Shown here: one piece after another, positions 37,132 through 51,078 of the stretch
How positions within the stretch are numbered: position 1 is the stretch's first letter
Layout of the letters: every line of letters starts with the position of its first letter
Origin: Eledone cirrhosa
Lineage: Eukaryota
Length of the DNA: 64,000 nt
Direction: 5' to 3'
Assembly (NCBI GenBank): GCA_964016885.1
Contig: OZ024749.1
Span: 27,652,001 to 27,716,000 of the forward strand
The notes under the pieces: model-generated
Databases searched by the model: none
What the model was told of the DNA's origin: nothing
Seen by the model: only the letters and a program-made list of their open reading frames with translations
Translations under genes and position numbers: made by a program

Positions 37132-37199
37132 TATTTTATTATGCGCATTTCAAAAACAAATATCATGAGATGACATTTGCGTTTTCGTCAGATAAAATA
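37132..37199 (-). ncRNA. minimal type-I hammerhead ribozyme in Penelope pLTR
   Basis: UAUUUUAU-CUGACGA-[15-bp stem II, loop CUC]-GAAA-UGCGCA-UA^-AUAAAAUA; perfect 8-bp stem I and palindromic stem/loop III. Confidence 0.8.
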
Positions 37200-38327
37200 A
37201 GGATACATGATATGAAGGTTAAAAAACACTTGTGAATAGTGAAGTTTTAAATCAACATATGAAAAGTAATTTAAGATTGATGTGTGATATTGGGAAAAAA
37301 ATGAGGGGGTGGGGTTGGAAAGGATGAAAAAGAGGAGGAGATGAGAGTAAAGAATGGTGGGGGTGGAGTGTAATAAGGAAGGATGAGATAGGGGAGATGG
37401 GTGATAGAAAAAGAGAGATAGCCTTTATAACTGAGAAGAAATATATATTGTTTCACAGAGAGAGGTTAAAAAGCCGTTGGAAGATAATATATAATTTAAA
37501 AGAATTTGAAAATTGATGAAGAGAAAAAATTAAGAATAATATTAAATTAAGGTTTGTATATTGAAGGGTTTAATAATATGTGCGATGAAAAGAAATTGTT
37601 AATATGTATTATTAAAATAAAAATATTAATGTTATTAAGGATATAAGGTGAAAAGAAGTAGAAGAGTGGATGAATTATGAATTTAGAGGAATTAGTTAGT
37701 GTTTAAGTTTGTTTTTATGTAATGTAATATGTATGTGTAATATATGTAAATAGTTTGTTTACAAATGAGCGCAGAAAGCAAAGAAGAAAATAGTGTTTAA
37801 GGAAGAGAAGACTTTAACATCAAAATATATATGTTTATGAAGTAATTTCTAATGGTAATAGTATAATGTAATAAAGGAGATTAGTTAGGGTTTAAGTTTG
37901 TTTTTATGTATTGTGATATGTAATATGTAAAAGTCAGACGAGCATGAAAGGAATAATCTAACGTCAAAAAAATGTTTATGTTTACGAAGGATTTTTAAAG
38001 GTAATGCTATAAAGTATTTAAAAGGTAATAATAAAATTTTATGGCCAATGGTATGAAGAAAGATAGAAGAGTGAATATGTTGTGGTGAGTAATAATAAGA
38101 ATTGAGAAGTATTTAGGAAGAAAAAGTACAGATTAGAGGCTAGAAATTAAAAGAAAAGAGGAAGAAAGTAAATTGATAAATAGGAATGATATAGAATGAG
38201 TAACTAGTATTATATAATGTATAATAAATAATATTGAAATAAAGTAGAAAGATTGGTATATTTTTAAAGAAATATATATATATAAGCCTTTGAGAAAAAG
38301 GATTTTAAACTGGTAAAGTATTAGATA

Positions 38328-39742
38328 TTAGCTGTATACTTTATGGAATGTTCTGTGGAATTTATGCAAGTAGAGAGAAAATAAGTCAGTGCATCTATTT
38401 ATTATAGAATCTAAATTAGATATAATGGTAAATTTCTCACATAAACAAAGATTACACGTTCTGGATAGGGAGGCATTCAAGTAGGGAGAGGCAGAACAAA
38501 CTTTCCTCCAAGAGATGTTATAGTTAATATTTTTGTCTTTCAAGGACCATATGAGTTCTGAGAGTGCCGTGTTGGTTCTTTTAAGTTGGTATTTAAAAGA
38601 AGAATTGTGATTATAAAAACGAGCTTTGAAGGAAGTGGAAGTGGAGCCGAAATAGGTATCGGTTATAACTTGACATTCATAGACTAAGTTTTTTTCAAGA
38701 CAATGGTTGTTGAAAGGACATTTATTTTTAACAGGGCAATTACAATTGCGATTAGAGAAATTAACAGAGTTATTAACAAGTGACCTAGGAGGAATTGGAT
38801 TGGAGAAGTTATTTACGATAGGAATAATAGTTTCCTGATTTAGATTGGTATTAAGAACATTTGACGAAGTTACGTTTGACGTCGTATTTGGGTTTGCAGA
38901 AACTAGCCTAGAGTTTACAATGATGTCGGGAGTACTACTGCTATTATTATGACATTCAGTGTTGGAAGGAAGTGATTTAGTATTTAATATTTTATTGTTG
39001 TGTTTAGAGATTATGTTGGAGATGTTGGAGGAGGTGGAATAGGAAAATTTAATTGTATGTTTGTTAAATATTTTACTATAGATATGTGAGGGAGGGAAGC
39101 ATTTATTTAAGGCACTAAAGAATAATTTAGGAATATTATTATTAATAGAAATAGAGAAAGGAGCATTATACCAGATTATAGTTTTGTATCTAGGTCTTTT
39201 ATTTAAGTTATTGGAATGATCGTAATTAATTATTTTACTGTAAGATCTTCTAGGATTGGTTTCTTTACTGTATTTGATTTTATCAGGATAACCGACTTTA
39301 GAAAGCGCATTATTATAGTAATTGGCGTTAGCATCAAAGATATTTTTATTAGATGACAGGTTTGATATTCTTTTTCCAATATTACTAACTATAGCATTTT
39401 TAATGTTAATGGGGTAGTTAGATTTAAAATTAACATAATTTAGATTCTCATTGTTTTTATGGTAAGGGTAATATAGGCCAGTGTCAAGATTAAGGGATAT
39501 ATCCAAGAAGTAAACTAGTTTGACGTTGTAATCAAATTCAGTTTTTAAGTTATGTTGGTTAAAGAGATCACGTATATTGTTCTTAATAATATTAAGGTTA
39601 ACTATGTTGCAATTTAAGATAGTAAAAAGTCCATCGTCCCGATAAATTCCACCGCGAAGTTGAGGAATTTTCCGATTTAAGGAATTCAAAATAAAGATAC
39701 CAATTAAATCAGTCAATTGCGATGAATCGGATGCACCCATTG
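38328..39742 (-). CDS. Penelope-like RT (C-terminal half) + GIY-YIG endonuclease
   Basis: MGASDSSQLTDLIG, GGIYRDDGL, YFLDISL, IIWYNAPFS, KIFNKHTIKFSYS, CPVKNKCPFNNHCLEKNLVY...YFGST...FKARFYNH...CNLCLCEK. The N-terminal 63 residues of the listed ORF are microsatellite or non-element sequence. Confidence 0.88.
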
Positions 39743-40624
39743 TAATATATATATATATTATATATATATATATGTATATATATATGTGTGTGTGTGTGTG
39801 TGAGTATGCATATATATTTGAAGAAAGTGTCCCGACTGATGGGAAGCGACTGACCTGTTTCGGCCATTTTCTGTTGTCTTCGCCCATCATTTTAATCAAT
39901 GTGTGTATGTGCACGTGTGTGTATGTATGCATTTTCTTTTTATTTTGTGGAACAAGAGAGTCCTAGCCTTCATTAAGACATCTCGCTAGGAGAAGGTCAT
40001 TCTGATATAAAATCTGCGACTTTGTTTGCATCCAATGATGTAGACTAGTTCTACATTTTCAGTAAATGCATTCAATGTTCAGAGAGCGGGATTGGCCTGC
40101 TGAAAAGCCTTTCCTTGCTTAAAAAAGCTTCAAGCAAAGGCATCGCTTGATATGTGATATTTTTGCGATGTATGGTATTGCTGGCCATAGGTAAGTTCCT
40201 AGCCAGACTAAAAAGCATTACTCGAAATTGAGTTGCAGCCACCATGTATGTAAGTATCTATGTATGTATGTATGTATGTGTGTGTATGTAATGGAAAGAA
40301 AAGCATGAGGAAGAAATTGAAGATATTTTATTTATCTTACACATGTTTCTGCAAAAAAGAGATGAAAAAAAATCAGGAAATGATGAAAAACTTGCTCATT
40401 CTCCATTATCAATATACAGAGATGTTTCTATATAATAGAATCTCGGCAATGACCCCAGGAACTCACCTTTAACCCTTAATTTCACTTAATCCTGTATGTT
40501 GAGTGACTTCAATACATATACAGAATATTATAGGAAAATATACAATTCCAAGAACAAGATTGAAATATATCACAATTATATGACATCTGAAAATAACATA
40601 TCAAATAGTCATTATAAACAGACA

Positions 40625-40795
40625 GAAGCCACTCCTTGCTATGGTGAAAAGACAGAGGTTTGCCTGGTATGGTCATGTATCCTATCACGACTCTTCGTCA
40701 AAGACCATCCTTCAAGGCACGCTTGACAAAGTGCAAAAGAGAGGCAGACGAAGAAAATCCTGGTCCAACAACATCAAAGACTGGACTGGTCACAA
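40625..40795 (+). mobile_element. RTE/BovB-type LINE 3' fragment
   Basis: LLAMVKRQRFAWYGHVSYHDSSSKTILQGTLDKVQKRGRRRKSWSNNIKDWTG. Confidence 0.75.
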
Positions 40796-42003
40796 CACTG
40801 AGTTGCCGACCTCAACTTCTTTTTCCATCTTCAAGGGTCTTCACCCTATTTTATAGCATCTCTGTACATGAGCACACCACTCTTTATATTAACTTTATCC
40901 CCCAAGCACTTTGTAAAATTCGAGAGATCAGCTACATATACACAACATATACATAATATCATAATATTTAAATGTTAGTTCGATTTAGGGATTGTTTAAA
41001 GCTGTTTACAATATATTAGAATGACTGACATATATAGAAACAGAATTAATAAACTAGAATCCACTAACTAATGATTTTAAGATGATGTATAGAAGTGTAA
41101 AAATATAGATACTATAATAGATATTGGGTGAGGGCTTTACTATTACATAGACAACTAAAAGCTAATATTTGTAAACGATACTTGGGTTATTGTTGGTCAT
41201 AGTAGAAAACACTAAGGCAGTATAGATAATAAAATATATTTGAACCCTTTAGCATTTAAACCGGCCATATCCAGCTAGAATTCTTTCACCATTTTCTGTT
41301 CAAACCAGCTGTAACTATTCATGCTTCTGTTAAAGTATTGATCTCAAAATAAATAACATCAAAATTTTGTAAATTCAATATTATATGAGTGTTTACCATG
41401 GAAATATAACAGTAAATATAGAGTAATGTAAATGCTAAAGGGTCAAGCGAATTAATGTTGTCTAACTAGAATTATTATAGTTTAAGGACAATGGACAATG
41501 AGATAATTAGGTCTTTTTAGGTTATTTTTTATGTTATTGAAGCTTTAAAAACTAGAATAAAATTAAATTTTGATAGACATAAATTGTAAGTAAATATTTA
41601 GGGAGTACAAATTCAAAGAGAATGAAATTTTAACTATATACATACATGCATATATACACGTATATACATATATATATATACATACATGTGTATATATATG
41701 CACACATACACACGCATATATATAATATATATATGCACATATAATATATAGATAAGCATATATCCATATGTATATGCACACACACACATACATATATATA
41801 CACATACATATATATATATATATACACATATACACATACATATATACATATACACACATATATATATATGCAGACATTTTATTATAGAAATTATTTCTAC
41901 AGGACTAGAACTGTTTCATTTGTAAGAAACCATTAGAATTAAAGAATATTGCATATTAATAAATAAGATTAAGGATTATTGAAGAAGATAAAACAACTGT
42001 TAC

Positions 42004-49936: not shown

Positions 49937-50622
49937 CTGTCAGTTATAAAGAGAAGAGAGACATTTTACAACTGTTACAAACAATATTTAGACACAGACA
50001 CATACACAAACTTACAGACATGCAAATATATATACATATATATTCATTTTTTTTTTGTGGTTCACAAATGGCTAGAACTGGTCATTTCATTTAGTTAACC
50101 ATGATGTAATGGTATGAAAAGCACTCTACATTATGCAACTCATCCATCGATGTTGAATCCTGTGGCTGGTGCAGGAATGGAGTTAAATATTAATTTGATT
50201 AAAATAACAGGACTAGTAATATTCTTTTAAAGTTATATTGTTGCAAAAAACACTATATCAATGGCTTCTTTACGTAAGATCCTGGCGACATCATCAGATG
50301 TGGATTGCATAATTAGTTAATCAATAAAGGGATTATGGCATACACAAACAGAGAATAGAGAAAACATTTGATATGGAGATAGCCCAGGAAATAGGTGTTC
50401 TTGTTGCTGCAGTCCAGGCTTCTGTTATTTTAATCAAATTAATTATATATATATATATAGCAAGGGCAAAAATATATAACTATATTTGTATGTAGAGAGC
50501 TATATAGGAGGGTGCATAATTGTCAAATAGTTTTATACAAAATTCAATGTGTAAAGTAATAAACTCGTTTATAGCTTGGCTATCTCTTTCTTGGTGTGTG
50601 TGTATGTATATATATATATATC

Positions 50623-50654
<32 letters not shown>

Positions 50655-50927
50655 CACATATGTATATATATGTATATATACATATAAACATACATATACA
50701 TATCTCCAAAATGGCTGACTGAATACACAAGTGTTCTTTCTCAAAAAAATGTTTTTTCCATTTTTTTCCTCTTCTCACTATCTTTCTATTTCATCTTTTA
50801 TTTCTCATTCTATTTTCTAATGAAGGACTTGTGTCCGAAATGTAAATACTCTTTTCCTTCTATATCAAGTGTTAAACTAATACATTTCTTAAGTGTACTG
50901 TGTTGTTTGTTGTTTCCATTTGCTTTT

Positions 50928-50972
<45 letters not shown>

Positions 50973-51012
50973 GATATTAAACAAATGGAAACTATATTTA
51001 TAAAACCATATT

Positions 51013-51078
51013 TATTTCATTATACATATTTCAGGGATACCATATTAAAAATATGGCATGCCTTCATCAGATAAAATA
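51013..51078 (-). ncRNA. minimal type-I hammerhead ribozyme
   Basis: UAUUUUAU-CUGAUGA-AGGCAUGCCAUAU..AUAUGGUAUCCCU-GAAA-UAUGUA-UA^-AUGAAAUA. Confidence 0.7.

Follow-up and report, generated by a model that had tools for sequence, protein, structure and literature searches.

Three hammerhead ribozyme motifs lie within one intron of DOCK9 in the orientation of the gene. They raise the question of whether they cut the pre-mRNA and influence its splicing, as the first-pass annotation proposed, or are passengers left behind by transposons.

Three type-I hammerheads in a DOCK9 intron

When both strands of the window (the whole 64-kb stretch analyzed here) were scanned with a descriptor, exactly three complete type-I hammerheads emerged, all on the minus strand, in agreement with the first-pass annotation:

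37132..37199, minus strand: HH1, type-I hammerhead; core start 37191, predicted cleavage after 37140, stem III palindrome UGCGCA
44422..44495, minus strand: HH2, older hammerhead copy; core start 44487, cleavage site after 44430
51013..51078, minus strand: HH3, type-I hammerhead; core start 51070, predicted cleavage after 51021, stem III UAUGUA

All three show three helices around a core of CUGANGA, GAAA, and UH, and have their ends in stem I. Stem I is 8 bp long in each, and stem II consists of 3 bp, one mismatch, and then a long helix; the sequences described previously for stems I, II, and III match those that we found. As monomers, HH1 and HH3 have a stem III of only 2 bp. The palindromic stem III permits homodimers in all three cases (8/8, 8/8, and 8/9 pairs), bearing out the dimer-cleaving Penelope design that had been proposed for two of them. 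In folding predictions, the cores of HH1 and HH3 were mostly unpaired in their sequence context (0.67 and 0.81, respectively). The claim that all three are intact stood for HH1 and HH3 and, for HH2, only in isolation, its core being predicted to pair once the upstream flank is included.

Hammerhead models gave a split answer. The descriptors recovered the three motifs, and Rfam reported no hammerhead in the window at gathering score, nor among the 150 listed of its 168 matches at E<=10, which would suit chance matches within AT-rich sequence. Variants of the type found in Penelope-like elements (PLEs) are usually detected by descriptor searches (PMC4209133). No complete hammerhead was obtained in 300 dinucleotide shuffles of the window (100 loose and 200 strict). 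Among 14 copies of HH1/HH3-type families, 99.6% of cells were paired and 5 of 18 pairs had changes on both sides, in a set of related copies from which the structure itself was drawn and to which the HH2 family does not belong. Exact half-motifs numbered thousands of copies in the genome versus 0 for a reversed-pattern control. The shuffles, stem covariation, and exact-copy counts rule out chance motifs, whose probability we consider vanishingly small.

The flanking exons place the hammerheads within a DOCK intron, as had been claimed:

58956..59064, minus strand: DOCK9 exon upstream of the intron, with inferred splice sites
34849..35027, minus strand: DOCK9 exon downstream of the intron, flanking all three hammerheads together with 58956-59064
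49922..49936, minus strand: candidate DOCK9 microexon of 15 nt, frame-keeping (DVQLE), with support from one mollusc homologue

The intron of minus-strand DOCK9 spans 23.9 kb and contains the three motifs in sense orientation. Sequence comparison lends some support to the microexon claim, in the form of this one 15-nt candidate: the gastropod DOCK9 protein P0009 has five extra residues (DIKPE) at the corresponding junction. The DOCK9 protein of Mya is uninformative on this point, since the region of the upstream exon is missing from it. HH1 and HH3 are on opposite sides of the candidate, and the HH3 cleavage site is the one 1.1 kb upstream of it.

Repeat families carrying the motifs

HH1, HH2, and HH3 each come from a different dispersed repeat family, with 926, 1,396, and 850 first-look candidates in the genome, respectively. 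Such hammerhead-bearing copies number tens of thousands genome-wide and occur in introns of other genes on either strand. The surrounding repeats are as follows:

37089..39743, minus strand: Penelope-like element truncated at its 5' end, showing Hydra-clade motifs and with a (TA)n run on either side; HH1 is its terminal repeat
38328-39743, minus strand: ORF remnant of this element (reverse transcriptase end, linker, GIY-YIG-type endonuclease)
50971..51240, minus strand: young repeat fragment of ~270 nt carrying HH3, between (TA)n runs
44490..44683, plus strand: inverted twin of HH2, without the stem II 3' strand and GAAA, with a one-sided tail

In the HH1 element, the ORF remnant is followed by ~1.1 kb of 3' sequence and then by HH1, which lies on the same strand 1,031 nt from this reverse transcriptase and GIY-YIG ORF. 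Two relatives (loci L005 and L009) are 91-92% identical and colinear over 1.7 kb. The 25-nt 3' half of HH1 has 22,318 exact copies in the genome, and the endonuclease has 57,699 first-look candidates. Pfam called no reverse transcriptase or GIY-YIG domain on the ORF or its homologues, and a structure model (mean pLDDT 42.6) gave no match at E<=0.001 and was set aside. Its Atlas neighbors carry HTH_animal, GIY-YIG, and RVT_1. By its sequence features, the HH1 element is a Penelope-like element with Hydra-clade motifs. Like the Hydra-clade PLEs described in PMC8557442, it has a CxCX5C linker, no CCHH motif, a CxxC near the end, a (TA)n target, and a canonical hammerhead. The RWK and DKT motifs of that clade were seen in 3/4 and 2/4 of the long homologues aligned, the corresponding region being absent from the window copy. 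The same source describes 5' truncation and inverted pairs with a one-sided tail, both shared here. Differences from that clade are the missing N-terminal half of the window copy and the absence of a cysteine from its final CxH; the likeness was shown for the HH1 element only.

The 24-nt 3' half of HH3 has 6,234 exact copies in the genome. Dozens of copies at other places match HH3 at 99-100% identity, which marks it as recent. The link of HH3 to an ORF is made through relatives, Penelope-like ORF remnants being found upstream of fragments 80-85% identical to its own.

HH2 is an older copy, its best relatives showing 88-93% identity. It forms half of a back-to-back pair, with the complement of its twin transcribed directly ahead of it. 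A hairpin of ~90 bp is predicted (-108.5 kcal/mol); with at least 25 nt of upstream flank, the core is fully paired in the prediction (unpaired probability 0.0). Inverted hammerhead pairs were divergent in 16 of 18 cases, and the cores of 12/27 sense hammerheads were predicted to be buried. For the HH2 family, the 3.5 kb upstream of the match contained an ORF in 0 of 28 cases; an endonuclease remnant near one locus of the family (L227) may belong to another element. The inverted pair and its tail fit PLE architecture. Five damaged plus-strand cores had also been reported. The inverted twin described above accounts for 44502; by eye, 50818, 48389, and 28761 resemble damaged cores that belong to other families, and 56374 is doubtful. 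Homology and one-mismatch scans recovered none of these last four, of which 28761 sits outside the intron of the three hammerheads, in another one.

Known hammerheads and strand distribution

The locus resembles the hammerheads of metazoan PLE pLTRs in its type-I topology, small palindromic stem III, and long stem II (PMC4209133; review PMC6765202). As there, the hammerheads are mostly solo, form nearby opposite-strand pairs, number thousands per genome, and lie downstream of a reverse transcriptase/GIY-YIG ORF, directly so for HH1 and through relatives for HH3. They differ in a longer stem I (8 bp plus an extension; PMC4209133) and in a stem II that starts with A-U or G-U, not the usual G10.1-C11.1, with a mismatch after 3 bp. 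Metazoan non-LTR retrozymes, which can reach 126,000 copies, also carry type-I hammerheads that descend from Penelope elements, and in Xenopus more than 40% of copies overlap introns (PMC7229834 and bioRxiv 10.64898/2026.07.22.740005). Retrozymes, as these texts present them, are tandem 200- to 350-nt repeats giving circles, whereas here there are three single copies of different families. A retrozyme array was rejected, the three sites holding single copies and no tandem short repeats. These families did not appear among the papers listed in searches for cephalopods, whose supplements may list cephalopod ones. Penelope-element hammerheads are already published, and the locus is one case of a very common transposon feature.

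The CPEB3 and RECK/C10orf118 ribozymes are single-copy. The motifs described here are likewise of a self-cleaving type, sense, and intronic (PMC10919898 and, for RECK/C10orf118, as cited in PMC10761166), but those are conserved and active as monomers, whereas the DOCK9 motifs came with recent insertions of many-copy repeats and have stems of the dimer type. A domesticated intronic ribozyme fits poorly, given young multicopy repeats in place of a unique sequence and no significant sense bias.

Control genes showed no significant strand bias. Eleven other genes (1.40 Mb) contained 34 intact hammerheads, 21 sense and 13 antisense (p=0.23). Counting all copies gave 30:24 (p=0.50), and the intact fraction was 21/30 in sense versus 13/24 in antisense (p=0.27). 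A second descriptor gave 25 sense and 19 antisense, and Penelope-like ORF remnants were 7 sense and 8 antisense. All hammerhead tallies lean sense, and at 34-54 copies this small test is compatible with a modest bias. Sense hammerheads occurred in 6/11 control genes without depletion, and sense triplets within 15-20 kb in 2/11. DOCK9 has six sense and two antisense hammerheads, and the 464 kb around the window contain 17 intact ones. At the control rate, three sense copies have P=0.003 in 24 kb and P=0.044 in 64 kb, both post hoc and ignoring clustering.

Transposon passengers or a splicing switch

One proposal, that of the first-pass annotation, is a co-opted set in which the core of HH1, bound to the cleavage strand of HH3 13.9 kb away, would cut the intron as it is transcribed and so control how the microexon is spliced. 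Stem I pairs 8/8 in either swap and the mixed stem III 7/8, with five contiguous pairs at the site where HH3 would be cut, and CPEB3 offers a published case of an intronic ribozyme whose activity is tuned to splicing (PMC10919898). However, the predicted HH3xHH1 heterodimer is favored over two monomers by only 0.4 kcal/mol, at standard state and before closing the 13.9-kb loop, compared with -10.7 for HH1xHH1 and -2.6 for HH3xHH3. HH2 was rejected as a dimer partner, with its predicted burial and heterodimers at +15.9 and +17.3 kcal/mol. Stem compatibility is common to whole families, and thousands of copies at other loci carry the shared stems; judging from the sequences, they reflect family ancestry. 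The recent insertion of HH3, the position of HH1 and HH3 on opposite sides of the microexon, and the lack of significant strand bias in control genes also argue against co-option, which we find hardly credible. The idea that a sense-biased set cuts the intron by cross-pairing and affects splicing is not supported, and a designed trio was rejected, with three separate families whose stems are shared genome-wide. On a related reading, the stem I and stem III strands of different Penelope families in this genome are compatible with one another, and copies from two families in one intron could form a cross-family double hammerhead. That the HH1 core in this way cleaves HH3, 1.1 kb ahead of a conserved 15-nt DOCK9 microexon, and shifts inclusion of that microexon is very unlikely, if slightly less so than co-option.

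Another alternative is appreciable cutting by HH1 or HH3, whether in monomer form or in trans with same-family RNA, which would lower DOCK9 output or shift microexon inclusion as an unselected side effect of recent insertion. Their intact, mostly unpaired predicted cores would allow this, as would the predicted stability of the HH1 homodimer in a family of more than 22,000 copies and the proximity of the microexon to the HH3 site. An axolotl hammerhead with a 2-bp stem III cuts alone (22% in an hour), and the monomer of a coral retrozyme, which has canonical loop contacts, reaches 0.8/min (PMC7229834). The long stem II departs from efficient canonical motifs, where stem II has 4 bp, a lizard PLE hammerhead showed no RNA ends at its site (PMC11167929), and harmful cutting should have depleted sense copies from control introns, where there was no depletion. 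We regard this alternative as unlikely, though well ahead of cross-pairing.

Most probably, the three are terminal-repeat ribozymes of separate Penelope-type insertions that cut the pre-mRNA rarely or slowly and have no regulatory role. They are read as passengers rather than a splicing switch since they derive from transposon ends present in tens of thousands of copies on either strand. Family membership, copy number, (TA)n insertion, the ORF upstream of HH1, and the control-gene strand tally are direct observations. The working role would be in transposon RNA, not in the DOCK9 intron: two same-family copies in tandem would join through the palindromic stem III of each, and the resulting dimer would cut. 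In the intron, each hammerhead would stand alone, HH2 locked by the predicted hairpin and HH1 and HH3 with a 2-bp stem III and no same-family partner. Minimal PLE hammerheads did not cleave singly and cleaved at a low level as dimers (PMC4209133), and slow intronic ribozymes reportedly leave splicing unblocked (as cited in PMC10919898 and PMC2995048). The locus is likely transposon debris of an ordinary kind, with a small chance of a splicing side effect.

As it stands, one locus among many is of little importance. Should cutting at HH3 alter the inclusion of the microexon, host splicing would in this rare case be tuned by ribozymes from transposons, in the manner of CPEB3 but with young repeats as the source, and cross-family cutting, if real, would extend such influence genome-wide through tens of thousands of sense intronic copies. 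The by-product is a small first test of strand bias, in which intact hammerheads are tolerated in sense in introns, and a back-to-back insertion geometry predicted to silence nearly half of the sense copies.

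Hammerheads and repeats of the DOCK9 intron

A descriptor scan of both strands of the window recovered three type-I hammerheads at the coordinates first given for them; each is complete and lies on the minus strand. The same descriptor matched none of 100 (loose) and 200 (strict) dinucleotide shuffles, upholding the three motifs of the first-pass annotation. None of them was reported by an Rfam search of the window. All lie inside one 23.9-kb intron of a minus-strand DOCK9-like gene that spans at least 140 kb; the two named best DOCK9 matches are molluscan.

Features of the intron and of the repeats carrying the hammerheads
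58956-59064, minus strand: DOCK9 exon upstream of the intron (exon matches)
51013-51078, minus strand: hammerhead HH3
270 nt between (TA)n runs, minus strand: fragment carrying HH3 (genome copies)
44422-44495, minus strand: hammerhead HH2
2.65 kb between (TA)n runs, minus strand: element ended by HH1 (ORF remnant 38328-39743)
37132-37199, minus strand: hammerhead HH1
34849-35027, minus strand: DOCK9 exon downstream of the intron (exon matches)

The motifs belong to three different dispersed families of this 3.0-Gb genome, with 926 (HH1), 1,396 (HH2) and 850 (HH3) first-look candidates, 40 of which were scored for each. The exact 3' halves of HH1 and HH3 occur 22,318 and 6,234 times in the genome, versus 0 for the reversed patterns. 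A degenerate 25-nt HH2 pattern occurs only 65 times, as would fit a family that is older and has diverged further.

In the HH1 element, the ORF remnant covers the end of a reverse transcriptase and extends to a GIY-YIG-type endonuclease, for which the genome holds 57,699 first-look candidates. Pfam made no RT or GIY-YIG call in this ORF and its homologues; Atlas neighbours at 0.93-0.97 carry HTH_animal, GIY-YIG and RVT_1. Two further copies of the element align colinearly for 1.7 kb, at 91-92%. With its CxCX5C linker, lack of a CCHH motif and (TA)n target, it resembles the Hydra-clade Penelope-like elements (PLEs) described in PMC8557442. The HH3 fragment is 99-100% identical over 146 nt to the 41 best-scoring places, its own site among them; Penelope-like ORF remnants precede relatives at 80-85%. 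HH2 forms one half of a back-to-back pair that has a tail on one side, an arrangement that the same paper gives for its PLEs; an ORF link was found in none of the 28 HH2-family matches looked at.

Among 14 mutually related HH1/HH3-type copies, placed on a structure that we drew, pairing holds in 99.6% of cells, and 5 of the 18 pairs are changed on both sides. That stem II sequences differ and still pair, as had been claimed, reflects family divergence under structural constraint.

Other repeats were observed. A LINE-type element (1038-3500, minus strand; 820-aa open frame with RVT_1 and a PHD-like finger) lies inside a DOCK9 intron, and translations of 8000-13000 show a short unit repeated in a long tandem array. 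In the intron of the hammerheads, a stretch of about 5.5 kb (52700-58400, GC down to 6%) is almost entirely TA-rich simple repeat. Two tRNA-like heads without acceptor stems (35337-35394 and 60876-60933, plus strand) are probably SINEs. A back-to-back Penelope-like ORF pair and a near full-length third copy lie 22-33 kb ahead of the window start (L073-L074).

Predicted folding and cross-pairing

Pairing of two ribozymes had been proposed to cut the intron. An HH3xHH1 cross-pair can be drawn, in which stem III forms 7 of its 8 pairs. Its predicted score relative to two monomers is only -0.4 kcal/mol, almost no gain, before a 13.9-kb loop is closed; the values were -10.7 for HH1xHH1, -2.6 for HH3xHH3 and -0.8 for HH2xHH2. 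Double hammerheads of HH2 with HH1 or HH3 were predicted at +15.9 and +17.3 relative to monomers, which removes HH2 as a partner. HH1 and HH3 have predicted core openness of 0.67 and 0.81, respectively. Their monomer hammerhead folds, with a stem III of 2 bp, are predicted to be 4.5-4.6 kcal/mol less stable than the lowest-energy fold.

An inverted twin is transcribed immediately ahead of HH2, and with its flanks HH2 is predicted to form a ~90-bp hairpin (-108.5 kcal/mol) in which the core is fully paired. Orientation is divergent in 16 of 18 inverted pairs and cores are predicted to be buried in 12 of 27 sense copies; in these models, burying by inverted twins is general, beyond HH2. Another repeat forms a 185-nt inverted pair (43836-44020 and 44973-45157, 92% complementary) enclosing the HH2 hairpin. 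The transcript there could fold into long duplexes, one nested in the other, which might be substrates for A-to-I editing.

Candidate microexons

A loose scan of the 23.9-kb intron gave nine sense microexon-like sites and one antisense site.

Candidate microexons
49922-49936, minus strand: 15 nt, DOCK9 frame kept, reads DVQLE
40341-40348, minus strand: 8 nt, frame-shifting, strong pyrimidine tract, GTAAGA donor

At the junction of the 15-nt candidate, one gastropod DOCK9 carries an insert of five residues (DIKPE). The description of the intron as microexon-bearing therefore has one homologue in its favor, but the others spanning the junction (6 of 84 proteins examined) lack the insert, and one matches the skipped length exactly. 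HH3 lies 1.1 kb upstream of this candidate, and HH1 and HH2 lie downstream. The 8-nt candidate sits just upstream of the Penelope-like element.

Strand, clustering and likely role

The strand test covered 11 other genes picked for long spans and found either with Pfam or by matching DOCK9 exons (five dyneins, three SNF transporters, two myosins and one DOCK paralogue), with 1.40 Mb read inside spans set by colinear exon matches rather than annotation. Intact hammerheads numbered 21 sense versus 13 antisense (p=0.23), so a significant sense bias did not emerge in these genes. All homologous copies gave 30:24 (p=0.50), solo copies 14:10, a second descriptor 25:19 and ORF remnants 7:8; the intact fraction was 21/30 sense versus 13/24 antisense (p=0.27). 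At this density of one hammerhead every 41 kb the whole genome would hold about 73,000, and three sense copies within 15-20 kb occurred in 2 of the 11 genes.

Seventeen intact hammerheads lie in 464 kb around the window. Five HH3-like ones, three sense and two antisense, occupy upstream DOCK9 introns 14-41 kb past the window end (L038, L040 and L041); they include a divergent pair that flanks Penelope-like ORF remnants. Same-family sense pairs less than 500 nt apart were seen at L179:1931 and L179:2374 and at L197:2601 and L197:3068 (plus strand), the genes being, in that order, an SNF transporter and a myosin; if a host intron is cut by a cis-dimer, these pairs are better candidates for it than the DOCK9 locus.

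We consider the three intronic hammerheads most likely passive. Against this count the sense lean of every hammerhead tally, the 6:2 ratio of DOCK9 itself and the probability of three sense copies in 24 kb at the control rate (P=0.003, post hoc and ignoring clustering). Cutting as a side effect is improbable. In published work, a single minimal PLE hammerhead did not cleave and dimers cleaved little (PMC4209133), and a lizard PLE hammerhead gave no RNA ends at the cleavage site (PMC11167929). Axolotl monomers cut 6-22% per hour (PMC7229834), so some monomer cutting is possible. As cited in PMC10919898 and PMC2995048, slow intronic hammerheads leave splicing intact and fast ribozymes abort it. 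That the set is a co-opted switch seems very improbable.

A literature search on hammerheads with Penelope and octopus, or with cephalopod, gave no paper on these families among the matches listed. Earlier publications (PMC4209133; bioRxiv 10.64898/2026.07.22.740005) already describe hammerheads in the terminal repeats of Penelope elements, including the dimer design and the occurrence in introns. HH1, HH2 and HH3 are further instances of these Penelope hammerheads.
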